Of a stretch of DNA of 64,000 bases, positions 7,076 through 64,000 are shown piece by piece. The notes under the pieces were generated by a model. It worked only from the letters and a program-made list of their open reading frames with translations, was not told the origin of the DNA and searched no databases. The translations under genes were made by a program, and so were the position numbers. Numbering within the stretch: position 1 is the first letter of the stretch; every line of letters begins with the position of its first letter. Location: contig CAVSHO010000009.1 of the NCBI GenBank assembly GCA_963727825.1, forward strand, positions 704,001-768,000, given 5' to 3'. This DNA comes from Ignavibacteriota bacterium (GTDB lineage: Bacteria; Bacteroidota; Ignavibacteria; UBA10030).

Positions 7076-7096
7076 AATAGTTCTCCTATAAATATT

Positions 7097-7114: not shown

Positions 7115-7132
7115 GACAAGTGCAAAAAATTT

Positions 7133-7453: not shown

Positions 7454-7461
7454 AATTCTTA

Positions 7462-29789: not shown

Positions 29790-29790
29790 A

Positions 29791-41391: not shown

Positions 41392-41444
41392 ACAAATTAT
41401 CCCTCAAGTAATATGGGACTCAAACAACAGGCAATGAATTAAGA

Positions 41445-43633: not shown

Positions 43634-43636
43634 CAC

Positions 43637-44371: not shown

Positions 44372-44449
44372 GATCGATGTAAAATAAATAATTGTTGAAT
44401 AAAAAAATGTAGTGAAAACGGAAACTGAAAACTCTCAACGAGAATAATT

Positions 44450-44986: not shown

Positions 44987-45059
44987 TCGGATATCTAGAG
45001 CACGTTCCTTTATGAAATTTATAAAGGCAAAAATATTAATTGATTGAACTGAGAAAAAT

Positions 45060-47068: not shown

Positions 47069-50000
47069 CTATCTCGCTATCAATTTAACTTGGGTAATTT
47101 GATTTATTCCTTCTCTGGAAAATGTTACTTCAACTATATCCCCCGGTTGGAAATTCTTCAAAGCATCTGAGTATTCACGTAAATTTGTTACTTCGTACTT
47201 GTCAATTTTCAAAATGACATCGCCTTTTTGCAGGCCTGCTTTCGCTGCCGGAGAATCCGGCGAACGATCCGCGATCCGAACTCCTGTGCCAGAATATTCA
47301 AAATCCGGCATACTACCTGTCGTGACTTTTCTCTCGCTATTGGTTTGAGGCTTCTTCGCTTCTGTCACCACCTGGCCTTGAAACGTAAGCGCACCTTCTC
47401 GATCAGCGAGATAGAGAATTGCTTCGCGAGCAACAGTTGCAACCTTCACTAACCCGGCTCCGTCAATCTTATCGGGAGTATCTGTGGGCTTGTGGTAATC
47501 CTCGTATGCACCGGCAAAGAATTGAACGCCAGGAACTCCGACGGCTATGAAGCTTCGTTCATCGCTCGCATCAAGATCCTGTGTCACCATTTCTGATTCC
47601 ACTCCCGTGGCATAGCCCGCTCCCATAAAGATAAATTTCCATTCACGAGCACTATTACTGCTTAATATGAGGAGTTTCTTGGCACCTAACCGGCCTACTG
47701 CATCAAAGTTCAAAACTCCGACAGCCTTCTTTGCAGGGAATCGTTTCATAGTGTTGACATAATATTTTGATCCGACACGTCCTTCTTCTTCATTTGTAAA
47801 GGCAATAAAGACAATCGTCCGTTGCGGATTCAAAGTTTTTCCGAGCAATCCAGCGATTTCCAGCATAACCGCGACACCACTCGCATTATCATCTGCACCG
47901 GGATGAATCTTTCCCACGTTCCCAGCACTTCCTCCCGGCCATCCAAGACCGAGATGATCGTAGTGTGCACAGATCACAACCGATTCATCACTCAATTTTT
48001 GATTCACACCGGGAATAATGCCTATAATGTTTTTGACTGGCGACTTTGTTCCTTTTTGATCGACTACATCGTCCCAAGTTTGAGTGTAACTCCCATCATC
48101 TGAGCCTGGCTGCAATCCAGCTTGCTTGAATTTCTCCACAATATAATCGGCTGCTTTTGCTATGCCTGCAGAACCAGGTGCTCTACCAGCCAATTCTGGA
48201 CTTGCAAGAAAATTCACCGTGTTCAGCATTCTCTCTGCAGAAAAAACAGGAGCCAGTACTGCAAGAGCTTTGCGCGCAGGAAGTTCCGTATATACATGCT
48301 TCTCCTCCGGTGCAATTCGTGCAACTAACGGAGAATTGGATGATTCCCACTCCCCCTTTTCTATATTCGTCGGTTCGTTTCCTTCAAACACGAGATAGCT
48401 ATACTTGCCATAATGTGGCAGTTTCTTGGCAAGCCCTTGAGCAGCTTCCTTACTGTCGGTTGATAACAGGACCAGAACTGCCGATGGGTTCTTCGGATTT
48501 CGAACAGAAATGATATAACTATTCATATTCCTCTTGTAAGTAGCATTCCCAAGCCGTACAGATTCAGCTGTTATTTCTGCATGATACTCCTTGAGCCCTT
48601 CTTTCACAGTTGACGCATATATATTTTCCATTCCAAAGATCCAAACATTTTCGTCCGCTGGAAGTTTGGGAAGTTCACGATCTAATAAAATCCGGATTCT
48701 TTTCGTAGAGTCGTTTGCCCAGGCTTTTGCCAATCCCCGATAATATTCCAGACTCCGCTGATCCGCTTTCGATGGCAAAAGGATCAGTAACTCTTCTGAT
48801 CCAAAAATCTTAGACAGCGAAGGTGGAATTTCATTATAATGCAGTTTACGGAATATGTCAAACTGAGGATCAATCCGTACGAGCAACGGATTTTCCGGAA
48901 GATCCAACTCGAACGTCTGTTCCTTCTGCGTCATCGCCACATTCTTGATCTCGGCTTTTTTTTCATAAGAGATTACAACCGGGATGTCAAGTATAAAAGC
49001 ATCGTCGTTTTGGACTTGCTTGAGAGTAAACTGAAGGTGATAGCTATTTTTGCTTTCCATACACTGAACATTTGAGAGATTGAGTTCAGGTGCTCCTTTT
49101 CGTTCTACCCATTGATCAAAGAATGGTTTTAGATCTTTGCCAGTTACACCTTCAAACGCGAGGCGGATGCTGTTAAAGGATGCTGCCTTGAACTTGTTAT
49201 CTCGATTGAATTTTTGAAAACCCTTCACAAAAGATTCGTCTCCTACCAAAACACGCAACATGTCCCACATCATCATGCTTTTTCCATATCCAATAGCTTC
49301 GGACGATGAATTGCTTCGCGATGTGAATTTATTCAATGGAAAATCGTTGGTTGGATTAACATAATCCGTGTAATTCTGGAGTGCCGTGCGCCGATATTCT
49401 GCTCCTTGCCCGCGCTGTTCTGCGATTAAATGATCAGCCATATACACCGTAAGACCTTCACACCAGTTCCCAGAATTGAAATCGACATACACACTATTGC
49501 CCCAGTAATTATGCAGAAGTTCATGCGGATAAGAAGAATTCAGGATGAAGGGGAAGCGAATGATTTGCTCTCCGAGAAGCGTGAATGATGGCATGCCGTA
49601 GCCTGTTTCCCAAAAGTTCTCTACGAGCGCAAACTTGGTAAACGGATATGGGCCTATGAGCTTTCGATACATTTCGAGATACTGGGCTGTCGTTTCGAGG
49701 TACTTGTTCGCAAGCGCTTCATCAGGGGTACGCAGGAATGCCATGACATCGGTCGCGCCGGCGGAGAGTGCATATTCCTTGAAACGAGCCGCAATCAGAT
49801 ACGCTTCTTCCATCAGCTCCGGTGAATCCCATCTGGAAACACGAACACCATTTTTTATTTCATGGAAAATCCTTTTCCCTTGGCTGACAACCTCCCAAGG
49901 ATCTGACATTGTCGTTGTCAATTCGAAAGTGATCAACTCTTTATTGAACCACGGAATCCAATATGTCGATCCCGCAAGATAGACGCCCTTTGCATCAATT

Positions 50001-50443
50001 ATTCCCGGCGTTTGACTGAACCCTCTTGCGTACTCTTCACCCACCTGCCTAATAGGATAGTTGATTACACCACTGAACTTGAGGGTGAACGTGACAGTGT
50101 TCACACTCTGCTCCTTGAAGGTCAAAGAATATTTATTCAGAATATAATTTTCAGTCGTAGTGAAATCCTCGCGATCCATCCCTAGACCTTCTGCTTTCAC
50201 ACCGGCCTGATCCAACGCGATAACAACCCCTGGAGTCTCAGAGATTACTGTCAGATTCGAATTGAGAATGAAGTGCATAAGCGGCTTTGTCTGTTCCGCT
50301 GGGATGGTAATCTGATCTGTTACTTCGATGAAATGATTTTCAGGATTCACCGTTGCATTAAGCTTATGATGGATTCCGTTATCTGCATAAGCAAGAGACA
50401 TGGAAAAGAAGAGGACAAGCATTCGTGTACATATTCGAAGCAT
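47069..50443 (-). CDS. Secreted M1-type aminopeptidase + M28 peptidase + PDZ fusion
   Basis: Signal peptide; GYGMP, HELLH...EGL gluzincin; AHYDH, GADDNASG, EEEG, DYHKPTD (M28); SPAAKAGLQKGD (PDZ). Confidence 0.88.
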   Translation of the reverse strand: MLRICTRMLVLFFSMSLAYADNGIHHKLNATVNPENHFIEVTDQITIPAEQTKPLMHFILNSNLTVISETPGVVIALDQAGVKAEGLGMDREDFTTTENYILNKYSLTFKEQSVNTVTFTLKFSGVINYPIRQVGEEYARGFSQTPGIIDAKGVYLAGSTYWIPWFNKELITFELTTTMSDPWEVVSQGKRIFHEIKNGVRVSRWDSPELMEEAYLIAARFKEYALSAGATDVMAFLRTPDEALANKYLETTAQYLEMYRKLIGPYPFTKFALVENFWETGYGMPSFTLLGEQIIRFPFILNSSYPHELLHNYWGNSVYVDFNSGNWCEGLTVYMADHLIAEQRGQGAEYRRTALQNYTDYVNPTNDFPLNKFTSRSNSSSEAIGYGKSMMMWDMLRVLVGDESFVKGFQKFNRDNKFKAASFNSIRLAFEGVTGKDLKPFFDQWVERKGAPELNLSNVQCMESKNSYHLQFTLKQVQNDDAFILDIPVVISYEKKAEIKNVAMTQKEQTFELDLPENPLLVRIDPQFDIFRKLHYNEIPPSLSKIFGSEELLILLPSKADQRSLEYYRGLAKAWANDSTKRIRILLDRELPKLPADENVWIFGMENIYASTVKEGLKEYHAEITAESVRLGNATYKRNMNSYIISVRNPKNPSAVLVLLSTDSKEAAQGLAKKLPHYGKYSYLVFEGNEPTNIEKGEWESSNSPLVARIAPEEKHVYTELPARKALAVLAPVFSAERMLNTVNFLASPELAGRAPGSAGIAKAADYIVEKFKQAGLQPGSDDGSYTQTWDDVVDQKGTKSPVKNIIGIIPGVNQKLSDESVVICAHYDHLGLGWPGGSAGNVGKIHPGADDNASGVAVMLEIAGLLGKTLNPQRTIVFIAFTNEEEGRVGSKYYVNTMKRFPAKKAVGVLNFDAVGRLGAKKLLILSSNSAREWKFIFMGAGYATGVESEMVTQDLDASDERSFIAVGVPGVQFFAGAYEDYHKPTDTPDKIDGAGLVKVATVAREAILYLADREGALTFQGQVVTEAKKPQTNSERKVTTGSMPDFEYSGTGVRIADRSPDSPAAKAGLQKGDVILKIDKYEVTNLREYSDALKNFQPGDIVEVTFSREGINQITQVKLIAR

Positions 50444-50575
50444 ATTTTTTCTCCGTAAGTAATTTTCTTGATTCACCTTTTTTATCCTATTATTCATATT
50501 AAAATAAATCAGTGCAAATCCATTCTCTCACTCTTTCCTGTCTTGCGATAAGAAGGAGAAGATTCGATAAATACC

Positions 50576-51377
50576 TTACTTCATTTTTGAATAATCAAGC
50601 TCGGAACCGAGCAGACTGTGTGGAATGAGGAAAGCAATAAGTGTAATGAGTGCAGCACCGAGAATCCATCGTTTTGGATTTGGAGATCTCTTTAATGCAA
50701 TTGCGGCTGACAATCCAACTGAGAATCGCAACCGCCAATTTATTATCTGTCAGGTCAGTACCAAATGGCCAGCCAGTCCAATAAACATCGAACGCGTACT
50801 TCTGAACAACTGGCCCAAGAACCATTCCGCCCACGAAGAGTAATGTAACGGTCCAATAAGTAAAAGCTGTGTAATGTGGCTCTTTGGCGAATATTTCTAT
50901 TCCAGTGCGCGTAGAAAATAGCATTGCGCCAAAAATGACAATGATATGAAAAATAAGCACCGCATTTGGTACCGCGCCTTTAAATCGAATGATGATTGAT
51001 CCATCTGCGGGGAGCACAACAGTCCGGATTGAATCTTGAAGATATACCCGATACTGAAGTTTTCCTGCCGGCGGCTGCAAAGGAATTTCGGCAGAGAGCA
51101 ATCCATTTTCGTAGTTCATATCGACGCGTGTCCATTCATCGTTTGTCTTGTTCCGTTTCCATTGAGCGAATCCGTGAATACTCGGATCACCTGTACGAAT
51201 TTGTATTCTGTGGTTTCTGATGCTTTCTTCACTTTTTTTCAACTTATAGAGAATTTCCTTTCCGTTCATCGACACGCTTCCGGTTACAGGGTGTGTTGGC
51301 CCGGTCATTCGTTGATAAATTGCCGAGACAGCTGTAATGAGGAATGCGAGAATCCAGAAAAGAAAAGAACGTTTCAT
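50576..51377 (-). CDS. Hypothetical membrane protein, frameshifted near the 3' end
   Basis: Several TM segments, WTGWPFGTDLTDNK; removing one base near 50710 restores a TM helix and the C-terminus IPHSLLGSELDYSKMK* (266 aa). Confidence 0.75.
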
Positions 51378-51832
51378 ATATTATTCCAATAAATTATTTA
51401 AGTGTATTTCAAACCGCGATAACTTTCTGCCGAAATCTTCAATATCGTCTGCTAGTCATTATTAAAACAATTTATGCAAAGTGTTTCGGGAAAAAAATCT
51501 CAAAGAATCAATTTTGACAGTAACTTCAGCTTAACAATCATAAACCGATTTAATCTACCCCTAATAAATGTTTCAATAATAAGTTAGTGATCTCCTTCGG
51601 TATCAGCAAGTTTAAAAGGATAAGAAGTTTTATTTGAGATCAACAACAATTAACGGACATGACATTATTTACTTGATTTTCATATCTCCTTCTAAGTAGA
51701 TCTGAGGGGAATAGACAGATTAGAAGATTTGACCTTTAAAAATAATATTGGGGATATTTTGAATAAAAATTAAAATGTTACTTTATTTAGTTACACAATC
51801 TTGGTAACTTTTTCCCAACTAGGAACGGTGAC

Positions 51833-52195
51833 ATGAATAATAATATACAGAATGCGCGTTTTGATTTCATCGAGTTTCCGGTTAAATTTCTTACTGATCT
51901 ATTAAAGACAAAATCCTTTTATTCAACTGTATTTGGATGGTCATATAAAGATTGGGGCGATGATTATTCGGACACGAAGGACAGTGGATTAGGAAGTGGT
52001 TTGAATGCCGATCCATCACATAAATCTAAAAATCCTCTTGCAGTGATTTATGTAGATGCAATTGAGGTGTCAAAAGAAGCCGTTATTTCTGCAGGTGGGC
52101 AGATTACTCGCGATATATTTTCATTTCCAGGAGGTCGTCGCTTTCATTTTATCGACCCAGCAGGAAATGAACTTGCTGTTTGGTCTGAAAAGTAA
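51833..52195 (+). CDS. VOC/glyoxalase-family protein
   Basis: FIEFP, FYSTVFGW, FPGGRRFHFIDPAGNELAVW. Confidence 0.9.
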   Translation: MNNNIQNARFDFIEFPVKFLTDLLKTKSFYSTVFGWSYKDWGDDYSDTKDSGLGSGLNADPSHKSKNPLAVIYVDAIEVSKEAVISAGGQITRDIFSFPGGRRFHFIDPAGNELAVWSEK

Positions 52196-52377
52196 AGATC
52201 ATAACTGTTATATGGCTTTGATTCAAATTAACGTTTTTATTGTTAAATTTGGATTTTGCAAATCATATGCTGATAGATATATTTAAAACGGATTCTTACA
52301 ATCGTACCGAAGCATGTGATGCCGGCGAAACAACGATTGGTTATTAAACAATAATCATAACAAAGGAGGACATAGTT

Positions 52378-52848
52378 ATGAAGGGCAACGATAAACTTCT
52401 CACAACATTGAACGAACTTTTAGCAGAAGAACTTACTGCTATTAGCCAGTATATGGTGCACTCGGAAATGTACGACAACTGGGGTTATGCAAAACTGCAC
52501 AAGTCGATTGAGAAACAGGCCGTCGATGAAATGAAACATGCTGAATGGCTAATCGGGCGTATTCTTTTCTTAGAAGGCATACCGATTATGTCCAAGCTCA
52601 ATCAAATCAAAATTGGTGCCGATATTCCTGCTATGCTATTGAACGATAGCAATGGAGAACAGACCGCAGTTCAGTTATATAACAAAGCTATCAATCTAGC
52701 GCGCGAAGTTTCTGATGCGGGGACAGCCGATTTATTTACAAAGATTCTTCTTATGGAAGAAGGACACGGCGATTGGCTGGGACAGCAACGTGATCAAATA
52801 GCACAAATTGGAATACAAAATTACTTGGCGAACCAGACGGGTGAATAA
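52378..52848 (+). CDS. bfr: Bacterioferritin
   Basis: MKG start, EELTAISQY, DEMKHA (heme Met), EEGH, IGIQNYL. Confidence 0.95.
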   Translation: MKGNDKLLTTLNELLAEELTAISQYMVHSEMYDNWGYAKLHKSIEKQAVDEMKHAEWLIGRILFLEGIPIMSKLNQIKIGADIPAMLLNDSNGEQTAVQLYNKAINLAREVSDAGTADLFTKILLMEEGHGDWLGQQRDQIAQIGIQNYLANQTGE

Positions 52849-52882
52849 CAACATGCGGATCTTGTTTCGACAATAGAATTTA

Positions 52883-52919
52883 AAAGCGAGTATGGGAGAT
52901 TCTGTGCTCGCTTTATTTT
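52883..52919 (+). terminator. bfr terminator
   Basis: AAAGCGAG...CTCGCTTT stem followed by ATTTT. Confidence 0.6.
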
Positions 52920-52972
52920 GTGCAAGAAAAAACCATTCACCTGTTCACTTTATGAGATAAACTAAATATCCT

Positions 52973-54058
52973 GTGAAACTCTTTACTCCTGATATGAAAA
53001 TGGCTGATGTTATTCACGGAAATTATTTATTAATGCCCGTAATCAATCGTTTTGGTGTATCACTGGGTGTCGGTGAGAAGACGGTGCGTGCAGTTTGTCG
53101 ACAACATAAAATTGATGTCGACTTCTTTTTAACAATTATCAATGCATATTCTCAAGAACATTATTTTCAGGAAAAGAAACTTCAGACGTTCAATGTACTA
53201 ATGATTGTCGATTATCTGCAAAAAACGCATCGATATTATATCGAAGCACAAGTTCCACTAATAGAAAAGCTGCTTAACAACCTGCTCCGCAAAGGCTCTG
53301 TCGATGTAAAGCGGCTTAGGCTCATCAAGAAATTTTTTCTGGAGTATAAGCAAGAGTTATTAAGCCATTTGGAACGGGAAGATGTCACGACCTTTCCTTA
53401 TGTTCGGAAAGTATATCGCCTGTTCAATACTCTTCGTCCCACTGCACAAGAAAAAAGGGCCCTCTCAAAATATTCCATGCACGTATATGAAGAGGAACAT
53501 AATAACGTTGATGAAAAACTCTACGACTTAAAAAATATCCTTATCAAATATATTCACGGCGATTCGATGGAACGGTTGTATCAAGAGGTAATCTTTGAGC
53601 TTTTCCGTCTTGAGAAAGACATTCTCGATCACACACGCATCGAGGATAATATTTTACTCCCGCTTGTGGCTGAAATGGAAGATGCATTGTTTTATCCAGA
53701 GGAACATTCAAAACGTACTGCGGGGAAAAACGCACTTACACAAAAGGCGACAAAAACGCTTGTGACACCCGAAGTAAAACCAAGCGAATCGCCGCAAGCA
53801 TTATATCGGATACCCTCTCATATTTCTAAAACAGGAACACAACAGTTTGAAGAACTCACTAAACGAGAACTTGAAGTTCTTCAACTTGTAGCATGTGGTT
53901 TTTTGAATAAACAAATTGCAGATAAACTTTCCATTAGCCTTCATACTGTTATTTCTCATAGAAAAAATATTACACGTAAACTCCAAATTAAAACTATCGC
54001 CGGGTTGACTGTGTACGCTTTGCTCAATGGATTGATTTCTCCAAAAAACATCACCTGA
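52973..54058 (+). CDS. Hemerythrin/RIC-like di-iron domain fused to a LuxR-type HTH
   Basis: N-terminal ScdA-like segment, THRYY, HLERE, EEEH, HTRIEDNILLP; C-terminal LTKRELEVL...NKQIADKLSISLHTVISHRKN. Confidence 0.88.
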   Translation: MKLFTPDMKMADVIHGNYLLMPVINRFGVSLGVGEKTVRAVCRQHKIDVDFFLTIINAYSQEHYFQEKKLQTFNVLMIVDYLQKTHRYYIEAQVPLIEKLLNNLLRKGSVDVKRLRLIKKFFLEYKQELLSHLEREDVTTFPYVRKVYRLFNTLRPTAQEKRALSKYSMHVYEEEHNNVDEKLYDLKNILIKYIHGDSMERLYQEVIFELFRLEKDILDHTRIEDNILLPLVAEMEDALFYPEEHSKRTAGKNALTQKATKTLVTPEVKPSESPQALYRIPSHISKTGTQQFEELTKRELEVLQLVACGFLNKQIADKLSISLHTVISHRKNITRKLQIKTIAGLTVYALLNGLISPKNIT

Positions 54059-54120
54059 TTATCCTCGCTCTAATTTTGAATTTTAACATCCCACTCTGAT
54101 TCCTTCTAGGGTATTTATAA

Positions 54121-54140
54121 AATCCCTACTAATGGGGATT
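54121..54140. promoter_or_regulatory. 20-bp palindrome upstream of methyltransferase-feoAB
   Basis: AATCCCTA-CTAA-TGGGGATT (one mismatch in 8-bp arms). Confidence 0.5.
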
Positions 54141-54226
54141 GTTTACTTTTCCCCTTCCTTTATCTTACCATGGTGATCTTGGGATAAATTAGATGGCTAT
54201 GCAAATATTAAAAGGGGAATAGAACA

Positions 54227-54814
54227 ATGTCTCGGCTATCAAGAGCAGAATTTCAAGCGATGAATAGTCTTCCCAGAAGGCTATTACAAAAACATTATGA
54301 GCTTCCACGCTTAAAACACATGGGTGCTTGTTTCAATGGAAAAGATATTTTAGAAATCGGATGTGGCTCAGGATACGGAGCTATTTTGATACTGAGGGAT
54401 AAACCACTAAGTTATATCGGAATCGATGTAATGGAAGAACAAATAGCGTTAGCGCAAAAGAGAGAAATCCAAGGTGCAGAATTTCGAATTGAAGATGCAA
54501 CAAATATGCAATCCATCGAAGATGCAAGCAAAGATTTAATTGTGATTTTTGGAGCATTGCATCATATACCAGAATGGCCCGTTGCATTATCGGAGTGTCA
54601 TCGGGTTCTTCGATCTGATGGAGAAATATACTTGGAGGAACCTACTGGGAAATTGTTGGAATTATTTGATGGCAGATGGCTGCATTGGTATCATCCCAAG
54701 GAGGGCCACTTCTCACTTCAAGAATTGACTAGAAGCCTAACGAATACATGTTTTAGAACTCTTAACTTGTCATCATTTTTTGGCATCGGTTTTTATAAGG
54801 CACAACGAATATAA
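54227..54814 (+). CDS. Class I SAM-dependent methyltransferase
   Basis: ILEIGCGSG, GID, LHHI, RVLRSDG. Confidence 0.9.
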   Translation: MSRLSRAEFQAMNSLPRRLLQKHYELPRLKHMGACFNGKDILEIGCGSGYGAILILRDKPLSYIGIDVMEEQIALAQKREIQGAEFRIEDATNMQSIEDASKDLIVIFGALHHIPEWPVALSECHRVLRSDGEIYLEEPTGKLLELFDGRWLHWYHPKEGHFSLQELTRSLTNTCFRTLNLSSFFGIGFYKAQRI

Positions 54815-54877
54815 GAGAATATTTTTGCCATTATTTCACGAAAACGTATTTTTCACAGAATGTTGGGGTAGGCAGAG

Positions 54878-57169
54878 ATGTTGAAACGCAGAAATCCTAT
54901 TGAGTTACCCGAATCCTTCACCGGAGAATCACATGGGGAAACAACTACATTCCCGGTACTAAGTGATCTCGTACCCGGAACACACAGCGTCGTACGTGGA
55001 TTGCGTGGGGGTCAAAAATTCATTAGCCGAATGGCTGCACTTGGTTTTACGTTGAAAGCCGAGGTAGATATTATCCAGAACCTCGGTCATGCAATCATCG
55101 TCGGTGTGCGCGGAACACAAATCGCACTTGGACGCGGTGAAGCTGCTAAAGTATATGTCAATGTACAGAAGGCAACTACTCAAAATAAACCGGTTGCACC
55201 ACCGGGTACAATCCGAGTAGCACTCACAGGGCAGCCGAACGCAGGCAAGTCCACTCTATTCAATTCATTGACCGGACTTACACAGCATGTTGGCAACTGG
55301 CCAGGCAAAACCATTGAGCAAAAGAGCGGCATCTATCAGCATGGGAATATTACGCTACAATTAGTTGACTTACCTGGAACCTACAGCCTGACAGCCAACT
55401 CGTTAGAAGAGCGGATTACACGAGACTATATTCTGACCGAACAACCGGATGTTGTGGTGGATATAGTAGATGCATCTGCACTTGAACGAAATTTGTACTT
55501 GCTTTCCGAGCTGCTTGCGCTACCAACACCTGTTGTACTGGGACTAAACATGATGGATGTTGCGGAAAAGCATGGTATTAGGATAGAACCTCATGTTCTA
55601 GAAGCTGCTTTGGGTTTGCCGGTTGTACCATTGGTTGCCACGAGAAATCAAGGTATTCAAGAACTTGTCCAGGCGGTCAAACAGGTTGCGCGTCAAAAAC
55701 AAAGCTATTCCCCGCATCGCCCTGAAATCCGTCTCGATCACAAAGCGGTGCTCGTCCAGCTTCGCCAAATCATTGCAGACAAAACACCTGCACCTTATCC
55801 ACCTGATTGGGTAGCGCTCAAGCTTCTTGAAGGAGATGAACAGATCACGCAAATAGTGCGCGAAAGTCTTGGTAATGCTGACTGGGTGCAGGTGCATGAA
55901 ATTCTTAAAGCGCACGAAGATGCCGTGCTGGCCATTGCTGGTGGCAGGTACGAATGGATAGAACGCATGGTGCGTGCAGCCGTAACGCGGCCTCGCGCCG
56001 GACAAATCACGGTGACAGAGCGAGTGGACCGAATTGCAACTCATCCTGTGTGGGGGTTTATGTTACTTCTAGGAATATTAGGATTGATCTTCGGGTTCAC
56101 ATTTGGTGTTGGGGCACCGTTGCAGAGATGGATGAACGAAGACCTGATCCAAACTGGAGCGGCAGCCCTGCGCATGAAACTTTCCGGTGCTCCTTGGTGG
56201 GTTACAGGTCTGTTGACCGATGGCATTATTACAGGGGCAGGAATGGTTTTCACTTTTTTGCCGATTCTTTTAATTTTCTTTACTGCGCTCGGGTTTTTCG
56301 AAGATGTAGGATATATGGCGCGAGCCGCTTATGTTATGGATCGCTTTATGCATTGGATGGGGTTGCATGGTAAATCGTTCTTGCCGCTTTGCATTGGCTG
56401 CGGTTGCAACGTACCGGGCGTATTGTGCACTCGTATTATTGATTCATCCCGTGCTCGATTGTTAACTATTCTGTTAATGCCCCTAGTACCTTGCACAGCT
56501 CGCTTTACGCTACTGGCTGTGCTCACACCTTTATTCTTTGGTCCTGCAGCGGTGTGGGTATCTGTCGGTGTAATAGGATTAAATTTACTTTTATTGATAG
56601 GAATAGGTTATGCTCTCCATGAACTAGTGCTTGGAGGAGAACATGTCGCCTTCATCATGGAGATGCCTCTCTATCATTTGCCGAACATACGCACTATTAG
56701 TTTATCTGTTTGGCAACGCACGTTGGAGTTTTTAAAAAAGGCCGGGGGCATTATCGTTGTCGCCTCTATAGTAATCTGGATTTTTTCAATCCTACCCGAA
56801 GGTAATCTGGAATCAAGTTACTTAGCGAATATCGGAAGATTCCTTGCTCCATTCGGGTCATTGATGGGTTTAGATTGGCATATGATAGTAGCGCTACTAT
56901 CCAGCGTAGTCGCCAAAGAAAATACAATTGTGACATTGGGAATTCTCTATCATGGAACTGGCTTGAATGCTCTTGGCGCTATTATAACACCTGCGGCAGC
57001 TTTAGCTTTCCTGGTCATTCAGGTGACATTTATCCCGTGTGTGGCAACCATAACAGCGATACGTCAAGAGACGCGCTCGTGGCGTTGGACGGTATTCATC
57101 GTATCACTTTTACTTGTTATATCGTTGATGACAGGTGTGTTGGTATACCAGATAGGACGCTTGCTATAA
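54878..57169 (+). CDS. feoB: FeoA-FeoB fusion ferrous iron transporter
   Basis: N-terminal FeoA-like RMAALGF...IALGRGEA; GQPNAGKS, GNWPGKT, DLPG, NMMD; GCNVP, PCTAR, AKE, PCVAT. Confidence 0.95.
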   Translation: MLKRRNPIELPESFTGESHGETTTFPVLSDLVPGTHSVVRGLRGGQKFISRMAALGFTLKAEVDIIQNLGHAIIVGVRGTQIALGRGEAAKVYVNVQKATTQNKPVAPPGTIRVALTGQPNAGKSTLFNSLTGLTQHVGNWPGKTIEQKSGIYQHGNITLQLVDLPGTYSLTANSLEERITRDYILTEQPDVVVDIVDASALERNLYLLSELLALPTPVVLGLNMMDVAEKHGIRIEPHVLEAALGLPVVPLVATRNQGIQELVQAVKQVARQKQSYSPHRPEIRLDHKAVLVQLRQIIADKTPAPYPPDWVALKLLEGDEQITQIVRESLGNADWVQVHEILKAHEDAVLAIAGGRYEWIERMVRAAVTRPRAGQITVTERVDRIATHPVWGFMLLLGILGLIFGFTFGVGAPLQRWMNEDLIQTGAAALRMKLSGAPWWVTGLLTDGIITGAGMVFTFLPILLIFFTALGFFEDVGYMARAAYVMDRFMHWMGLHGKSFLPLCIGCGCNVPGVLCTRIIDSSRARLLTILLMPLVPCTARFTLLAVLTPLFFGPAAVWVSVGVIGLNLLLLIGIGYALHELVLGGEHVAFIMEMPLYHLPNIRTISLSVWQRTLEFLKKAGGIIVVASIVIWIFSILPEGNLESSYLANIGRFLAPFGSLMGLDWHMIVALLSSVVAKENTIVTLGILYHGTGLNALGAIITPAAALAFLVIQVTFIPCVATITAIRQETRSWRWTVFIVSLLLVISLMTGVLVYQIGRLL

Positions 57170-57372
57170 AATTGATCCTTCGAGAATGATTGTTGCTTTA
57201 GCTTTTAAACTTACGGCTAAAGCCAGTGGTGGGAGCAGTGAATATCCTCTCGAACAATTTGCTGATAGATTCTTTTTCGAAGCCCCACCATCAAATTCAG
57301 TATGCTATATTTCAAATCCTGCCTCAATTAGAACTGTACGAAGTTCATCTTCCATCGCAGCGTAAGCAACTC

Positions 57373-58095
57373 CTAATGAGGGATCTCGCTCAGTGATCTC
57401 GCAAAGAAATTACTAAGCAGACACTGTTCTGCATTTTTGCAATTTTGAAATTCACAAAGCTCGTTTCCGTATAAGACTAGAAAGCGGCTACAAGTACGAG
57501 ACGCAAATTCGACATCATGAGTCGCAATAACAATTGAAGATGCAACAGAGCGCAACAGATTTGCCAGTGACAATTTTCCGCGTGGGTCAAGCGCCGATGA
57601 CGGTTCATCAAGCAGCATCACCGAAGGATTGGTGACCAACGCACCTGCTAGTGCGATTCGCTGGCGCTGACCGTGGGAAAGTTGAAATGGTGAACACCCT
57701 GCGATGTCCGATACGCCCAATGCCGCAAGCACAGACATGGCTTTTTCATGCGCTATTTTCGACGGTGTTCCTTTACGAATCAGGCTATATGCAACGTCAT
57801 CAATTACACGGGGAAACAGAATTTGATCTTCGGGAATATTGAAAAGGAACCCTGTCCGGTCACGTGCTTCCTGAAGGCTCTTTTTTTCAATAGGAATCCC
57901 ATCGATGAAAATAGACCCGGTGAAGGGCACCAGCCCTACTGCAGCGAGCAGTAATGTCGTTTTCCCTGACCCGTTGAGACCGAATAACGCCACTCTTTCA
58001 TCGTGATGAACATGAAAGGAAACATTGCTGATAGTATTCTTAGAATTTCCAGGATATCGGATGGTCACTGATTTAAATTCAAGTACTGGGTTCAT
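57373..58095 (-). CDS. ECF transporter ATPase (CbiO/NikO/EcfA-like)
   Basis: GLNGSGKT, PEDQILFP, LSHGQRQR, LDEP, THD. Confidence 0.9.
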   Translation of the reverse strand: MNPVLEFKSVTIRYPGNSKNTISNVSFHVHHDERVALFGLNGSGKTTLLLAAVGLVPFTGSIFIDGIPIEKKSLQEARDRTGFLFNIPEDQILFPRVIDDVAYSLIRKGTPSKIAHEKAMSVLAALGVSDIAGCSPFQLSHGQRQRIALAGALVTNPSVMLLDEPSSALDPRGKLSLANLLRSVASSIVIATHDVEFASRTCSRFLVLYGNELCEFQNCKNAEQCLLSNFFARSLSEIPH

Positions 58096-58841
58096 GCTAT
58101 AATTCTCAACCTCATAAGAATAGATGCTATGAGAACAACAGAAGCACAGATGATCGTCAGTACGTCGGCAATCGTCAATTTAATATTCTCACCTGAAGTT
58201 ACTGCCTCAACTCCATACCCTCGAACTGTCATTGCCGCTGCGGTTCGTTCTGCACGAAACATAATTCTCACCATCCACACAATTGGAAAAGAAAACAGAA
58301 CCCTTGTGCCTCGTACTCCTGATGCGCCTCTCAATCGAAGCACACCGATAATGCGCAACGTTTCTTCCATTAGAAGCATGGTTTGATTGATTAGCTGGAC
58401 TATTAAGATAATAAATGTCCTGGGAATTGGAATGTTTGCGAACCCCCGATGCACGTCTTGAATTGCAAGAATAGTAATCGTCGATGCGGCAATAAAAAGA
58501 ACGCATGTGCTGCGAAGTGCAATAGCTCCTGCCTGTGCAAAGCGGTCAACCATCGGTGCTGTCATAGACGAATCAACTGTCATCCAGGGGGTCAATAAAA
58601 AAAAGGGAAAGAAAAGAATGAGAGAGACAATAATACATCGGAAAAACATTTTTACCGGCATTGCCGCTAGCAAACACCAGCAGGTTGTGGAAATGATCAT
58701 GAGGGCTATACCAGTTATAGATTGCAACGGAATCAGTAAACAGCTACTGCCAAGCAGAATTCCCGAAAGAATTTTAATATGCGCGTACAGAGATTTCAGA
58801 GGACCCTTTCCACACCCCCAGAATGTAAAACCATCTTTCAT
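58092..58841 (-). CDS. ECF transporter T component (CbiQ/EcfT-like)
   Basis: TM helices followed by coupling motifs LRLRG and RAERTAAAMTVRGY. Confidence 0.88.
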   Translation of the reverse strand: MKDGFTFWGCGKGPLKSLYAHIKILSGILLGSSCLLIPLQSITGIALMIISTTCWCLLAAMPVKMFFRCIIVSLILFFPFFLLTPWMTVDSSMTAPMVDRFAQAGAIALRSTCVLFIAASTITILAIQDVHRGFANIPIPRTFIILIVQLINQTMLLMEETLRIIGVLRLRGASGVRGTRVLFSFPIVWMVRIMFRAERTAAAMTVRGYGVEAVTSGENIKLTIADVLTIICASVVLIASILMRLRIIA

Positions 58842-58843
58842 AA

Positions 58844-59464
58844 TCAAACCTTACGCGCTGATATTAGATATCCTGAATCATCGTCCAGTGTTTCTTCGAT
58901 GATAAAGCCGGATTGTTCAAGTAACACTGCAGTTAGAGATGCCGGTACTAGCATATGATTACTTATGACCTTGGAAGCTCCTGCGTGAGTCTTGTTTATT
59001 GTTTCACGTGATCTCAAATGCCAGATATGGAGTTTGCCGCTGGGTTTGAGCATACTCTGGAATAATTTTGCCGCTATTCCAGAATTTTCCAAGTGTGGCC
59101 AGACCGAATAGCAGATCACTCTATCAAATACATTTTTAAATGTAGTCATGTTCTCGACCGAATCACATACCCATTTAACGCGCAAATCATTTATTTTCGT
59201 TTGTGCAATTTCGATCATCCGGCTGGATATATCAACGGCAGTAATTCTGCCTGCTTGTGATAATTGACAAAGAATTGCAGCTGTTAAATTCCCGGTACCA
59301 CAGCCGACATCGAGTACATGCTCATCGGGACGAAGACCAAATCGCTTGAGTCCATTATCAAATTGAACTTCAAGCGAATTAAGATTTTCCCATGAATCCC
59401 ATTTCGGAGCGATAGAATCAAAATATGCGGCAATTGTTTGTTTAGAACTATCACACATCTTCAT
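58844..59464 (-). CDS. Class I SAM-dependent methyltransferase embedded in the ECF operon
   Basis: YFDSIAPKWD, VLDVGCGTG, VDIS, CYSVWPH, LKPSG. Confidence 0.9.
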   Translation of the reverse strand: MKMCDSSKQTIAAYFDSIAPKWDSWENLNSLEVQFDNGLKRFGLRPDEHVLDVGCGTGNLTAAILCQLSQAGRITAVDISSRMIEIAQTKINDLRVKWVCDSVENMTTFKNVFDRVICYSVWPHLENSGIAAKLFQSMLKPSGKLHIWHLRSRETINKTHAGASKVISNHMLVPASLTAVLLEQSGFIIEETLDDDSGYLISARKV

Positions 59465-59984
59465 TTCCTGTTTGTATATTTGAATGGCCTACCGTACGAG
59501 AAATTCGAATGATTGCTGGAATAGCTACTATCATTAGAATGATTCCGGGCCATCCACTAAGAAGTGATACTCCGGCTATAAACTTAGCTGGCAATTTCAT
59601 GAGTAACGCCATAAGATAAATCAATCCTACGCCAATACATCTACCGACAAGTAGAATTGGAATAAAAATAATCAGCTCGTGAAGTTTTGGGAATAAAACG
59701 CGAACATAGGCGATGATTCCGCACATTGTTGCGAGTTCAATGCTCATAATAAATGCTATCGGAGGATAAAACGGCGGCATGCCGGTGATTGCACCGGAAA
59801 GCAGCGGCAACAGAAGCGCAGTCAGCATGGCAGGTATCGGCCCAACAAAAAAGGAAAGCGTCACCAAAGGTAAATACATAGGCATAAACATCGATCCAAT
59901 GTGAAAAACATGAAATATCACCGGCAGTAGCATCGCGGCCGCCCCGAAGACCGCACAATAAGCAATATCGCGTGGTTTAAGCAT
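59451..59984 (-). CDS. ECF transporter substrate-binding S component
   Basis: 177 aa, five to six TM; LPVIFH...GSMFMPMYLP, GAITGMPP, GWPGIIL; no NikM/CbiM MHIxDG N-terminus. Confidence 0.8.
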   Translation of the reverse strand: MLKPRDIAYCAVFGAAAMLLPVIFHVFHIGSMFMPMYLPLVTLSFFVGPIPAMLTALLLPLLSGAITGMPPFYPPIAFIMSIELATMCGIIAYVRVLFPKLHELIIFIPILLVGRCIGVGLIYLMALLMKLPAKFIAGVSLLSGWPGIILMIVAIPAIIRISRTVGHSNIQTGNEDV

Positions 59985-60090
59985 GGTTATTCCTTAAATG
60001 TCAGGCCGGTAAGAATGTCGGACTAAACATCAGATAATATAAAACAGATTCCTCACAATAAATAATATGACTTGATCTCGGCCCCTCTCA

Positions 60091-61917
60091 CTAGAGAGAC
60101 GCCCGCATTCCAACATTCACGGTTCTTCCCGGCATTGGATAACCGTAGATTGTTTGGTACGATTCATTTAAAACATTACGGCTTCCGATAGAAAGAGAAA
60201 TCTTTTCTGTTACTTGAGCTGCTACTCGAATTTCCATGTTTGTATAATCGGGTAATTGTTTCAAAGTATAGTCTGTTTCATCGGTTCCATAAATCGTATT
60301 GACATATTGTGCTGAGAGCAAAAAGGTTAATACATTCCAGCGGTATTCTCCGCCGAGATATGCTTTGTGTTTCGGTACGGCTTGGGCAACGTCGGGTTTA
60401 TCTGCAAAGGAATAATTTGCATTGATGGTAAAGTTATAAAAAGGAAGCAATTGTGCGGAGCATTCCACTCCGTCACGATGAAATCCGCCTGTGTTCCATG
60501 ATTTCATTCCGTACCAACTATCGACAATAGTGTTTTGTGCATCAATAAGATAACCGGCAATATCAATTGATGCATAATGGCTAAATACGTGAGAGATTCC
60601 GATTTCATAATTCCATAGGTTTTCCGGCTGTAATGTTCCATCCCTTGGAGTCAATTGATAGATTTCAAAAATCTGAGGTGCACGGTATCCTCGTCCAACC
60701 GATGCGCGGATGTTTGTTTCTTCTGTAAGTTTATATGTGATACCTGCCTGCGGTACGGCAATATCTCCAAAGTACGTATTATATGTATATCGAATACCGG
60801 CATTTGCCAGTAACCGATCACAGAATATCTGCTGCACGCTGATATATCCGGCATAATCTTCAATCGTATGCGTTCCCAAATCACCATATGCGTTCGATCC
60901 GTGTCCGCCGTTTTGTTGTACATCAATACCTGCACTAATTGTACTGCCGGTAGATAATTTAAATGATTGATAAGCTGTTGCAATAATCTGATGGTCGTCG
61001 GAAGTCCAACCTGCGTTATAAACCGGATCGAGTTCATTATGCCCTAAATTATACACAATATTAATACCGCCTTTTGATACCCAAAATCATTTTCAACGGA
61101 TGCACCAATATATCCACGCTGAATGTGCATCCAATCATTAGTATCAGGTTGTGTAATTTGTCCTGGATCAAATGTATTAAATTGAGTATAGCTTCCATCT
61201 ACAGAGAACCTATATTGTTCATTCAATTGATATGAAGTTTTAAGATAACCGCTGTTGGCAGTATATTCCGACCAAGGCCGTGAACCGTCGGTATGTTCAT
61301 GCGTAAAGGAACCTAATATATTCCAATTGTTTTCTTGATATCCAAGATGCAAGCCATATTGTTGTGCATCATCAGTGCCATATGAAATAGAGGCATTACC
61401 CAACATTCCATCTTGCTGCGTTCTATGAGTAATAATGTTAATTACACCGCCCATTGCATTGGAGCCGTACAACATCGATGCCGGACCGCGAATGACTTCA
61501 ATCCGTTCAGTATTCGTCGAGAGATAACTGTCGTTAATCGGATGTCCATACCATCCCATATATTGCGGGCGGCCATCAATGAGCGTGAGTACTTCGTTGT
61601 TAGGACTTCCGCCGATTCCCCGGATATTGATCTGACCGGAGGGCGAGTTCACACCAAATCCAAGAACATCCCGCTCAGCAATAAACACGCCAGGTACTTC
61701 TTGACTGATGAGTGAAAAAATAGATTTTTCTGGATTAGCACTTATTACATCGGCTGAAATGACGCTGATCGACGGCGATACCAAACTGCGAGAAGTTTCC
61801 GTCTTTGTTGCCGTTACTGTTACCGGATTTAGAATTGTACATCCGTGTCGTATCTATCTGCGCAAAGAGGATTATAGGAATAAATAATAAATAAATTATG
61901 CGAATAATTGTTTTCAT
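60091..61917 (-). CDS. TonB-dependent outer-membrane receptor, split by two compensating indels
   Basis: Signal peptide, corrected VTVTATK TonB-box region, plug INIRG...LIDGRP...RIEVIRGPASMLYGSNAMGGVINIIT, barrel ending NVLNESY...YPMPGRT; corrected length 608 aa. Confidence 0.9.
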
Positions 61918-62054
61918 AATGCTGATTCCTTTCTTTGTAATCTGAGATATTTCGTTAATATGTTTAGTAGACCGATTACAAAGAAACGGAGTGATAGGAA
62001 GTCCAAATAATAGTATTTACACCTATCATGATAGAACGTGCAAATTGATAAGGA

Positions 62055-62483
62055 TTATTTCCCATGATGATGACCTTGCAATGCCATTGTCAGCGTAAGC
62101 TTTCCATGTTTCACACCTTTGAAGCTTATAAGTTTTTCTGCGATGGTTTTTAGTACTACAGCTTTTCCTTTTAGCAGGACGACCTCCATGCAATGATCAT
62201 GATCAACGTGGACATGAGATGTCGATATAATATTCTCATAATAATCATGCTGAAGATTGGACAGAGATTTTTCCAGTTCCCGCTTATGGTGATCATATAT
62301 AAAAACCAATGCACCATAGACGATACCGTCGGGCGTTTTCACGCTTTCTTCAACAAGCGCATCACGCACAATATCGCGGACTGCTTCTGATCTGTTTGTA
62401 TATCCTTTTTGCTCAATGAGGCAATCGAATTGGTGGAGTAAATCCTCCTCCATCGACACGCTAAATCGGACAAGTTGTTCCAT
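62055..62483 (-). CDS. nikR: Nickel-responsive regulator NikR
   Basis: RFSVS ribbon, GYTNRSEAVRD, YDHH, QH, HVH..HDHCME. Confidence 0.96.
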   Translation of the reverse strand: MEQLVRFSVSMEEDLLHQFDCLIEQKGYTNRSEAVRDIVRDALVEESVKTPDGIVYGALVFIYDHHKRELEKSLSNLQHDYYENIISTSHVHVDHDHCMEVVLLKGKAVVLKTIAEKLISFKGVKHGKLTLTMALQGHHHGK

Positions 62484-62493
62484 GACATTCTCC

Positions 62494-62520
62494 GTGTTAC
62501 AATTATAATAATTGTAACAC
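62494..62520. promoter_or_regulatory. Putative NikR operator
   Basis: Perfect 12-3-12 palindrome GTGTTACAATTA-TAA-TAATTGTAACAC (GTGTTA-N15-TAACAC) 10 nt upstream of the nikR start. Confidence 0.8.
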
Positions 62521-62707
62521 TTTTTGGGGAAGAAATCAAGATGCGTTTTTGTGTTTGTTTATATTGAGAGGAACTTAGTCCGACATCTCCACAGTGCAGT
62601 TCAAATTCAATGAAGTTTTTTTGCACAAACAGATATTGCAATGCATGAATGTGTTAAGCTCGTGAATAGTGTGATTCATGAGGCATAAAAGAGCGTGAAA
62701 ACCGGGC

Positions 62708-63460
62708 TTACTTGTCAGAAGGAAGTAATGAAATAATTTTAAACGCTGCTGCTGCCGCTCCAACACCATTATCGATATTGACAACCGAAACGCCCGGAGC
62801 GCAACTCGTTAGCATCGCAAAGAGCGCAGTGAACCCCGAAAGCGCAGTGCCATACCCGACGCTTGTTGGAATTGCAATGATTGGCTGCGGATAAAGTCCT
62901 GCGATGACGCTTGGGAGCGCGCCTTCCATCCCGGCTGCAACAATAAGGACATCACAATCACGCAGCTTCATATCGTTTGCAAACAGACGATGAATTCCAG
63001 CAACACCCACATCAAAAACTCTTTGAACTTCTACACCGAGACTTTCTAAAACAAGTGCCGCTTCTTCGCACGCTGTAATATCAGTGGTTCCGGCGGAAAC
63101 AATACCAATTCGTCTCCCGGAAACTTGCGGCAGCGGTTTCCCGATACGGAAGGAACGCGCATCTTTTAAAAACAATCCCTGTGGAAAAGCTTTTCTTAAT
63201 TGCGGGAAAAATTCCTTCGGGCAGCGTGTACCAATCACAAGTTTTTGTTTTGCATAAAGCGCTTTTGAAATTGCAATAATGCGCTCAACTGATTTATTTT
63301 CACAGTAAATCACCTCAGGAATCGAAGTTCGATCGCGGCGTGACATATCGAGCTTTGCATATTCTTCAATAGCGTGCAACGATGATGAATGAAGTTGTGC
63401 TTTGTTGTGAGTGAATTTACGATTTTGATGGATTGCTGAACGGGACTTTCTATTTTGCAT
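62708..63460 (-). CDS. larB: Nickel-pincer cofactor biosynthesis carboxylase/hydrolase LarB
   Basis: PEVIY, AGTTD, DVGVAGIHR, AGMEGALPS, PTSVGYG, VVNIDNG. Confidence 0.93.
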   Translation of the reverse strand: MQNRKSRSAIHQNRKFTHNKAQLHSSSLHAIEEYAKLDMSRRDRTSIPEVIYCENKSVERIIAISKALYAKQKLVIGTRCPKEFFPQLRKAFPQGLFLKDARSFRIGKPLPQVSGRRIGIVSAGTTDITACEEAALVLESLGVEVQRVFDVGVAGIHRLFANDMKLRDCDVLIVAAGMEGALPSVIAGLYPQPIIAIPTSVGYGTALSGFTALFAMLTSCAPGVSVVNIDNGVGAAAAAFKIISLLPSDK

Positions 63461-64000
63461 TCTGTAGAATCTCCCGATTGAGCTTGCCGGATTTAAACCC
63501 TTCTTCATCTATAAGCACTTCTTTGTATCCTAACGATTTCAGAAACCCCTGAACATCGTCAAATATTACCGTAAGTTTTGTAATCGCCCAGGAATCCACC
63601 TCGATTTTTGCAGTTGTTTGAAAGTGTCGAACGCGCACATTTGTAAATCCTTTTTCCCGAATGTAGCGTTCAGCTTGTGCAATCATACTGATAGAAGTTC
63701 TATCGATCATTGTTCCATAAGGAATACGTGAAGAAAGGCATGGCGCAGACGGTTTATCGTGATTCGGCAAACCATATAATAGAGCAGCATCTCGGACATC
63801 CTGCTTGGTAAATTTGGCTTCAATCAATGGAGAGCGAATTTGATATTCTTTTGCGGCAATTCTTCCGGGACGATAATCCCCGATATCATCTAAGTTTGCA
63901 CCATCAAGCATGAACGGGATATTCTCTTTCCCTGCGATTTCGCCAAGCTGCCGATAGAGTTCTTGCTTGCAGAAATAACACCGATTAATAGGATTTGCTG
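63450..64000 (-). CDS. larE: Nickel-pincer cofactor sulfur transferase LarE (5' part beyond window)
   Basis: Frame is open to the window end: NPINRCYFCK, DGANLDD, DYRPG, PCLSSRIPYG, VRVRH, GFKSG. Confidence 0.93.
   Translation of the reverse strand, partial: ANPINRCYFCKQELYRQLGEIAGKENIPFMLDGANLDDIGDYRPGRIAAKEYQIRSPLIEAKFTKQDVRDAALLYGLPNHDKPSAPCLSSRIPYGTMIDRTSISMIAQAERYIREKGFTNVRVRHFQTTAKIEVDSWAITKLTVIFDDVQGFLKSLGYKEVLIDEEGFKSGKLNREILQNAK

Follow-up and report, generated by a model that had tools for sequence, protein, structure and literature searches.

Gene organization of the locus

The window analyzed in this work is a 64,000-nt stretch of the genome of an Ignavibacteriota bacterium (assembly GCA_963727825.1, contig CAVSHO010000009.1, positions 704,001 to 768,000), and all positions without a contig or locus label refer to it. 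Near its end lies a module in which the regulator gene nikR is combined with a gene for a TonB-dependent receptor and with the S, T and A components of an energy-coupling factor (ECF) transporter, and in which a gene for an S-adenosylmethionine (SAM) methyltransferase is inserted between S and T. The order on the minus strand, to which all genes of the module belong, is larE, larB, a 27-bp NikR operator, nikR, the receptor, S, the methyltransferase, T and A; larE and larB are neighbors and lie outside the module. The initial annotation of this DNA, made from the letters alone, had described the same single-strand gene order with the last four genes overlapping or abutting, and both the family searches and the positions of the open reading frames (ORFs) agree with it, the overlaps being 14 nt between S and the methyltransferase, 4 nt between the methyltransferase and T, and 4 nt between T and A. 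The features are as follows.

63450..64000, minus strand: 3' part of larE, the gene continuing to C9:768253 past the window (TIGR00268, 204.6 bits against a cut-off of 150; full ORF 267 aa)
62708..63508, minus strand: larB (NF033503, 257.3 bits against a cut-off of 175)
62494..62520, unstranded: NikR operator, a perfect 27-bp palindrome, GTGTTAC-N13-GTAACAC
62055..62483, minus strand: nikR (NF003381, 175.6 bits against a cut-off of 105; PF08753 NikR_C, 106.4 bits; PF01402 RHH, 29 bits)
60091..61917, minus strand: TonB-dependent receptor, about 610 aa when read through (plug PF07715, 78.9 bits; barrel PF00593, 108.8 bits)
59451..59984, minus strand: S component, 177 aa (structure model; distant relatives in PF12822)
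58844..59464, minus strand: class I SAM methyltransferase, 206 aa (PF13649, 67.5 bits; PF08241, 61 bits)
58092..58847, minus strand: divergent ECF T component of the CbiQ family (PF02361, 25.5 bits against a cut-off of 25)
57373..58095, minus strand: ECF A component, a single ATP-binding cassette (ABC) ATPase gene of the CbiO type (PF00005, 91 bits; TIGR01166 cbiO, 148 bits, below the cut-off of 211.8)
57172..62725, unstranded: 5.55-kb cassette missing between feoB and larB in a genome of the same genus (alignment with locus L088)

NikR, encoded by one gene copy in the genome, carries the RHH domain and the C-terminal nickel-binding domain in family searches, and its sequence contains an H-x-H-x5-C stretch, with a His 11 residues ahead of the stretch, which we take to be equivalent to the nickel ligands of the E. 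coli protein. The perfect operator claimed in front of nikR is present as a 13-1-13 palindrome, GTGTTACAATTAT-A-ATAATTGTAACAC, which ends 11 nt ahead of the nikR ATG and overlaps the -10-like TACAAT of a promoter-like site on the minus strand (TTGATT-17-TACAAT, 62539-62511). It is identical to the consensus GTGTTAC-N13/14-GTAACAC, which PMC545781 gives as the NikR signal derived for deltaproteobacteria, located upstream of nik(MN)QO operons. Since the operator at nikR is the sole perfect match to this motif in the 3.12-Mb genome, its occurrence at this position is more than chance. A second operator-like site with one mismatch (C7:59529) lies inside a polysaccharide-export gene and was judged a chance match. 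A search for riboswitches, those for cobalamin and SAM included, found none in positions 50000-64000 of the window or in 15 loci of the module that lack nikR, one tRNA alone being matched.

The features expected of an ECF transporter, namely a six-helix S fold, a T component of the CbiQ/EcfT family and an ATPase of the CbiO/EcfA type, are all found, and the import activity itself is predicted. The match of T to the CbiQ family is marginal, and the T sequence contains two xRG stretches, LRLRG and TVRG, which are presumably its coupling-helix motifs. For the A component, the best NCBIfam models are cbiO and ECF_ATPase, with E-values of about 1e-43, below the equivalog cut-offs.

Recurrence of the module across bacterial phyla

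A scan of one genome per species yielded 137 confirmed loci with a homologue of the S component, the best 80 of which were examined. The receptor gene lies directly upstream of S on the same strand at 56 of the 69 loci whose upstream flank measures 2.3 kb or more, the methyltransferase is the next gene after S at 75 of 78 loci, and T and A follow downstream at 71 of 73 loci each. The nikR gene is found at 28 of the 80 loci (21 of the 48 with full flanks), always at an end of the module; loci with nikR and/or an operator site with at most one mismatch come to 36 of 80 in our tally. The labels of the loci include Bacteroidota/Ignavibacteriota, Fibrobacterota, Raymondbacteria, Lentisphaerota, Verrucomicrobiota, Kiritimatiellia, Myxococcota, Acidobacteriota, Planctomycetota, Bdellovibrionota and Eisenbacteria. 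Recurrence of the combination of nikR, receptor, S, methyltransferase, T and A had been proposed as a check in the initial annotation, and the module does recur, with its NikR link, across many phyla.

The operator sites themselves are enriched at these loci. Sites with at most one mismatch number 15 in 1.15 Mb of loci, compared with 0-1 per shuffle (1 in total over 10 shuffles), and sites with two mismatches number 10, compared with 1-7 per shuffle. Of these 25 sites, 17 are followed within 80 nt by the called start of nikR, of a lipoprotein gene, of the receptor or of a fusion of S with the methyltransferase. Four further sites (L032, L035, L062 and L065) lie 200-1200 nt before the next recognized gene, three of them inside an over-long ORF call of the first lipoprotein gene, and the last four (two each in L070 and L073) have no such placement. 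The lipoprotein genes belong to two small lipoprotein-like families, encoded between the operator and the receptor at 19 and 18 of the 80 loci (for example L005:741-1786, L036:6064-7037, L048:6038-7047 and L072:6153-7081). These Cys-containing proteins of about 160-190 aa have no Pfam match and no homologue in the genome studied here; they may serve to capture the cargo at the cell surface.

The module tends toward metal-transport islands. As for its wider surroundings, a ZnuA-like binding protein, transporter genes and a porin-like outer-membrane protein are encoded within a few kb of it at nine loci (L006, L008, L009, L011, L013, L015, L016, L055 and L069), and FeoB is encoded near it at 6 of the 80. 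Neither an ECF importer that has a methyltransferase embedded in it nor this family of S components was found described in the literature covered, which largely leaves out subscription journals.

An S component of the vitamin-type fold

The 177-aa S protein has no match in Pfam or NCBIfam, including PF01891 (CbiM). Its N-terminus reads MLKPRD, with no MH at this position, and no NikN/K/L- or CbiN-like gene was found in the operon, where the methyltransferase is the sole extra gene; the initial annotation was correct in noting the lack of both the MH motif and a NikN/L/K or CbiN partner. Its identification of the protein as an S component, on which the family databases are silent, is supported by structure prediction. 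The model, built from a 57-sequence alignment (predicted local distance difference test score, pLDDT, 84.8; predicted template modeling score, pTM, 0.79), shows helices arranged as in S components, and the first 12 matches to it that Foldseek gives in the PDB all belong to the ECF S components (RibU, FolT, ThiT, PanT and HmpT), with probabilities of 0.99-1.00 and template modeling (TM) scores of 0.51-0.69, yet with E-values of just 3e-3 to 0.2. Relatives with 27-37% identity match PF12822, the residues in common being H25, G30, P35, M69-P70, E83, R115 and P146-G147. The model supports the assignment of the protein to the ECF S components, as a new subfamily, and together with the PF12822 matches of the relatives it supports a vitamin-type S fold of the PF12822 lineage and not of the NikM/CbiM type, from which the initial annotation had set the protein apart.

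Seven residues, H25, M34, M69, E83, M87, R115 and W145, are invariant in the 57 homologues, and C10, H28 and M36 are conserved in at least 90% of them; C10, H28, M34, M36 and W145 are conserved in the close family beyond the residues common with the distant relatives. We place the conserved residues in the outer half of the protein, presumably the half that binds the substrate, by the topology that we assume for S components.

The family is large and almost unnamed. At E ≤ 0.001, 643 homologues were retrieved, and those of the best 120 that carry a name are called ‘hypothetical protein’, except for one ‘ECF transporter S component’; a profile search against 1.84 billion representatives gave 1119 matches at E ≤ 0.001 and 33 at E ≤ 1e-30. 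The profile of the family had no match among PDB sequences at E up to 10. The predicted fold is common to the S protein of the window and the PF12822 S components, among which the structures of RibU, FolT, ThiT, BioY, PanT and HmpT have been solved. The former differs from the latter in its dedicated T/A pair, in the receptor and the methyltransferase that accompany it and in its control by NikR, and, unlike them, it falls below detection by Pfam, NCBIfam and the PDB-sequence profile search.

Fusions to other cytoplasmic domains occur in distant members of the S lineage (PF12822; the set P0239, P0268, P0267, P0140 and P0146): two involve TM1506/DUF1893, two an ABC ATPase and one FmdE. A built-in partner on the cytoplasmic side may be a wider theme among S components.

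The methyltransferase and its coupling to the S component

Motif I of the methyltransferase, DxGCGTGNL (D52-G54-C55-G56-T57-G58), and the acidic residue D78 are invariant in 73 sequences, which suggests selection for SAM chemistry. The family also has an invariant set of its own, W22, D23, K90, D93, R95, C118, W122-P123-H124, H149, R153 and H160. The nearest folds to the structure model (pLDDT 95.8) are UbiG (E 1e-13) and PmtA, and also RebM and Coq5, with TM scores of 0.69-0.76, E-values of 1e-13 to 1e-11 and sequence identities of 15-22%. The fold and the SAM motifs are thus common to the module enzyme and to small-molecule class I SAM enzymes such as UbiG, PmtA, RebM, Coq5 and BioC. Assignment to a known subfamily was rejected in each case tried, the NCBIfam scores and cut-offs being 65.5 and 216 for UbiE/MenG, 57.5 and 180 for CpaM, 51.6 and 155 for DVU_1556, 54.5 and 184.95 for BioC, and 42.2 and 575 for ArsM. 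Generic class I methyltransferases alone were returned by the PDB sequence search and by the search of the protein Atlas. A second methyltransferase of the window (54227-54814) has 19% identity over the SAM motif and is not a notable paralogue.

The tie between the methyltransferase and S goes beyond adjacency. The two are fused in a single ORF at 5 of the 80 loci, labeled Acidobacteria, Aminicenantales, Lentisphaeraceae (twice) and Kiritimatiellae, and five more fusion representatives were found in a library clustered at 50%; the fusions place the methyltransferase at the C-terminus of S, on the cytoplasmic side. Moreover, a divergent pair, S' and MT', follows nikR and a receptor gene, with neither T nor A, in two relatives (L116:2347-5844 in genome G066 and L117:1662-5165 in G059). 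S' is 26-28% and MT' 27-30% identical to the module counterparts, and H124, H149 and H160 are kept in MT'. In G066 this locus directly adjoins the genes for a NiFe hydrogenase large subunit and the HycI protease, and G059 has the variant in addition to the full module, with a separate nikR for each. Judged from these gene arrangements, S and the methyltransferase appear to form a unit; a prediction of their complex gave a score of 0.00, which counts neither for nor against binding. For the methyltransferase, roles in making, modifying or unloading a ligand had been put forward. Because the enzyme is tied or fused to S, modifying or unloading the ligand fits better, and the role in making it fits less.

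The TonB-dependent receptor

The plug and the barrel of the proposed TonB-dependent receptor were both identified, but its gene is not intact in the window. It is split into three ORFs, for the signal peptide (61735-61917), the plug (61044-61784) and the barrel (60091-61056), and DNA alignment with the intact genes of L004 and L002 shows one inserted nucleotide near 61835 and one deleted nucleotide near 61080; the signal peptide and the barrel are in the same frame, and the 755 nt between them, with the plug, are in another. All parts of the receptor are present, including the TonB box NPVTVTAT, but not in a single reading frame. In 56 related loci the receptor is intact. The scores against models of B12 receptors and of siderophore receptors are about equal, all of them far under the cut-offs.

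The frameshifts may be either assembly errors or a recent loss of the outer-membrane step in this copy. In public short-read data, the best Logan contigs cover much of the receptor gene at 99% identity or more, and none bridges 61835 or 61080. That the frameshifts are real, so that the copy in this genome is decaying and outer-membrane uptake has been lost here, is a serious possibility to which we give somewhat less than even weight, and which is independent of what the module does in general. Decay would fit the two indels, which fall within 755 nt in a single gene, the intact state of the region's other eight genes and of the 763-aa FeoB and the 1142-aa peptidase of the window, and the accessory nature of the module in the genus (see below). 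Against it, the shifted plug segment is open over 246 codons and the receptor pieces have 81% protein identity to the receptor ORF of L004; split genes in the corresponding operon are also seen in the loci L003 and L009 from metagenome-assembled genomes; and rodA of the same window is likewise split into two consecutive halves, which is unlikely to be real. This gene of the rodA/ftsW family, located beside that of a PBP2-type transpeptidase on the minus strand, is broken into 28571-29158 and 29142-29831, halves that overlap by 17 nt and correspond to profile positions 5-188 and 177-355. Since this would be a frameshift in a normally essential gene, the rodA split is probably an assembly indel.

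The neighboring lar genes and distribution in the genus

The link that the initial annotation drew between the operon and the nickel-pincer genes could not be upheld. Neither LarB nor LarE is encoded near the module at any of the 80 loci (0/80), and nikR stands alongside none of the 13 same-genus loci in which the larE-larB pair is conserved. One genome of the genus, G063 (locus L088), aligns to 55809-57171 (feoB) and 62726-64000 (larB/larE) of the window with 143 nt between the two blocks. As G063 is colinear with the window and lacks 57172-62725, this 5.55-kb cassette is an insertion/deletion difference; no repeats were found flanking it. The module was found in 5 of 15 same-genus genomes and, occurring in so few of them, is accessory; in four of the five it adjoins nikR at a distance from lar. 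In G065, for example, the approximate positions are 0.76 Mb for S and 1.03 Mb for larB. In the genome studied here, larC is 210 kb away from the module. Because lar genes are near none of the 80 loci and the feoB-larB junction exists without the cassette, the link to the pincer cofactor is unsupported, and the position of the module beside larE-larB is an accident of this genome. A linkage unique to this genome had been named as an outcome that would count against the initial proposal: the linkage to lar is indeed unique, whereas the linkage to nikR is recurrent.

The neighborhood is nevertheless nickel-themed in this genus. A further locus, L118 (G052:C3:441500-449500), from another same-genus genome, contains hypA, hypB, a 142-aa ORF, nikR, a receptor gene and a cupin gene, convergent with larB-larE. 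Its receptor is 60% identical to the barrel part of that in the window, and S, the methyltransferase, T and A are missing from it.

Nickel economy of the genome

The recognizable nickel users of the genome comprise three NiFe hydrogenase large subunits, hypA/hypB, larB, larE and larC, and a weak LarA-like match. No CbiM/NikM (PF01891), NiCoT or HupE/UreJ protein was found in the genome, which is 96.8% complete. The operon is therefore the genome's sole recognizable candidate for nickel import among the systems sought, which did not include those of the NikABCDE type. It lies 11 kb from a plus-strand segment (40343-46924) that carries hypA, hypB and a cluster for a Hox-type bidirectional NiFe hydrogenase, and the region is therefore a nickel-themed island. 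The Hox-type cluster encodes a 2Fe-2S thioredoxin-like subunit, NuoF-like and NuoG-like proteins, the small subunit, the large subunit (45060-46493) and a 144-aa ORF. An either/or pattern of the module and CbiM was considered and rejected, as half of the module-bearing genomes checked carry both (25 of 50) and most members of the genus carry neither.

Relation to known nickel transport systems

The NikMNQO, Nik(MN)QO, NikKMLQO and CbiMNQO systems resemble the module in being ECF transporters with a dedicated operon, one CbiQ-type T and one CbiO-type A. The module differs from NikMNQO and CbiMNQO in its S component, which lacks PF01891 and the Met-His start and has a six-helix vitamin-type model, and in the lack of an N, K or L partner; what sets it apart from the described Ni/Co ECF systems is the SAM methyltransferase located between S and T or fused to S. 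A TonB-dependent receptor reportedly accompanies the Ni/Co ECF systems of some proteobacteria, as Rodionov and co-workers are said to have noted in 2006. The operator GTGTTAC-N13/14-GTAACAC is common to the module and to Nik(MN)QO-type systems (PMC545781).

By description, the outer-membrane step can be likened to FrpB4 and FecA3 of Helicobacter pylori and to NikH, which are likewise controlled by NikR and energized by TonB (PMC11247825). These receptors feed NixA, NiuBDE or Nik ABC systems, whereas the module receptor adjoins an ECF importer and a methyltransferase. According to PMC11247825, the ligands of NikR-regulated TonB receptors such as FrpB4, FecA3 and NikH have not been identified.

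Proposed function and alternatives

As the NikR-linked module is recurrent in many phyla, a nickel-regulated route across the two membranes, as proposed in the initial annotation, is the most economical reading of the recurrent set of receptor and ECF genes. With moderate confidence, we regard the module as a NikR-repressed system for the acquisition of nickel across both membranes. At low nickel, NikR would leave the palindrome that overlaps the -10 element, and nikR, the receptor, S, the methyltransferase, T and A would be transcribed, probably as one unit. The TonB-dependent receptor would carry a nickel species over the outer membrane, and S would capture the substrate for a dedicated, group-I-style ECF importer in which T and a dimer of A drive import. 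The methyltransferase would act at the cytoplasmic face of S on the incoming species, most likely on the chelating ligand, and this methylation could result in the release of nickel or in irreversible import. The gene content, the operator with its match to the published signal, the recurrence of the NikR-linked module, the S fold, the fusions and the intact SAM motifs are observations; nickel as the cargo, a chelate in preference to the free ion, and the target of methylation are inferred.

As to the role of methylation, we tentatively favor modification of the chelating ligand to free the nickel, because of the vitamin-type lineage of S, the receptor with its lipoprotein accessories, the small-molecule fold of the methyltransferase and the conserved Arg, Lys and His residues at its presumed acceptor site. 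The module could then be a methylation-coupled importer, a kind of group translocation that would be new for ABC and ECF transporters, in which a methyltransferase docked on or fused to S modifies the emerging cargo, strips it of nickel and makes uptake irreversible; this is put forward as a speculative possibility. The modified cargo may be a chelator in complex with nickel, or else a thiol or carboxylate ligand that the cell has scavenged in an anoxic habitat.

Several observations weigh against nickel acquisition as the function. The nikR gene adjoins the module at 28 of the 80 loci only, and many loci have neither nikR nor a strict operator, several of them ending short upstream. No recurrent metallophore biosynthesis genes were found in the neighborhoods of the 80 loci, and hypA/hypB are near the module at just two of them. 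A CbiM/NikM homologue is present in 25 of 50 module-bearing genomes, so the module is no simple replacement for it, and most of the other genomes of the genus have neither the module nor CbiM. The ligand cannot be read from the pocket residues of S, among which Met and His abound beside one Arg; the receptor family has one invariant His in 56 sequences, which speaks neither for nor against a chelate; and the receptor gene in the window is twice frameshifted. Finally, we know of no precedent for a methyltransferase as a part of an importer.

An unlikely alternative, though one with several conserved residues in its favor, is that the receptor and S carry the bare Ni2+ (or Co2+) ion and that the methyltransferase-fold protein is a cytoplasmic nickel acceptor or gate, its three invariant His residues binding the ion coming from S and its SAM binding being structural or regulatory. 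TonB receptors for unchelated metal ions are known, among them ZnuD and OprC. In S, the outer ends of helix 1, loop 1, loop 3 and helix 4 carry conserved His, Met, Cys and Glu residues, H25 and M34 being invariant and H28, M36 and C10 conserved in at least 90% of homologues. In the methyltransferase, H124, H149 and H160 are invariant in 73 sequences and kept in the 27-30% identical MT', and the absence of metallophore biosynthesis genes from the neighborhoods also fits a free ion. However, the invariance of motif I and D78 points to SAM chemistry, and the PF12822 lineage of S is of the vitamin type and not of the ion-binding NikM/CbiM type. Residues K90, R95 and R153 of the methyltransferase and the folds of small-molecule O-, N- and C-methyltransferases nearest to it suit an organic acceptor, and the two lipoprotein-like genes that precede the receptor at many loci are of a kind often found in ligand-capture systems.

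It is less probable still that the cargo contains no nickel and is instead a corrinoid, a tetrapyrrole, a quinone-like compound or an organic acid that is needed when nickel is scarce and whose uptake is therefore co-regulated by NikR. The fold and lineage of S, which are those of vitamin carriers, would suit such a cargo, and so would the receptor, which scores against the B12 model about as well as against the siderophore models, far below the cut-offs in every case. Non-transport genes have also been predicted as targets of NikR, an example being hydAB of D. desulfuricans (PMC545781). This alternative is countered by the lack of a riboswitch in the searched part of the window and in 15 loci, by the association of nikR with the module in many phyla and with the S'-MT' variant, and by the fact that the operon holds the only perfect NikR site of the genome. 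Salvage of the nickel-pincer nucleotide or its precursor, functionally tied to larB/larE, is very improbable, since the one point in its favor is the adjacency to larE-larB in the window, while LarB and LarE are near none of the 80 module loci, nikR is beside none of the 13 same-genus larE-larB pairs, the module lies elsewhere in same-genus carriers such as G065, and the interval from feoB to larB differs between genomes by insertion or deletion of the cassette.

Other genes of the window

Convergent with the operon is an iron-themed plus-strand segment (51833-57169) that encodes a glyoxalase-fold protein, a ferritin, a regulator in which hemerythrin is fused to LuxR (GerE), the class I methyltransferase at 54227-54814 mentioned above and a 763-aa FeoA-FeoB fusion. 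An arsenic-type cluster on the minus strand (84-7489) comprises genes for two ArsR-family regulators, an ArsP_1 permease, two low-molecular-weight phosphatase/ArsC-like proteins, a Methyltransf_31 (ArsM-like) methyltransferase, a nitroreductase-like protein, and thioredoxin and DsbD-like proteins. The 1142-aa protein encoded at 47069-50497 on the minus strand has M1 and M28 peptidase domains and a C-terminal PDZ domain.

Implications

The nickel supply of diderm bacteria is poorly known beyond a few model pathogens, above all where nickel is tightly complexed, as in anoxic habitats that are sulfidic or rich in organic matter. The module described here, with 137 genome loci and 1119 S-related protein clusters, is a defined and widespread target for its study, and offers a candidate nickel route for genomes that, like this one, encode NiFe hydrogenases and Lar enzymes yet no recognized nickel transporter. 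It also adds a new subfamily of S components together with an unprecedented enzyme partner. Release of metals from chelates is known mainly to proceed by reduction or hydrolysis of siderophores. If the methyltransferase does process the cargo, it would represent a new principle both for ABC/ECF transport and for the release of metals from chelates.

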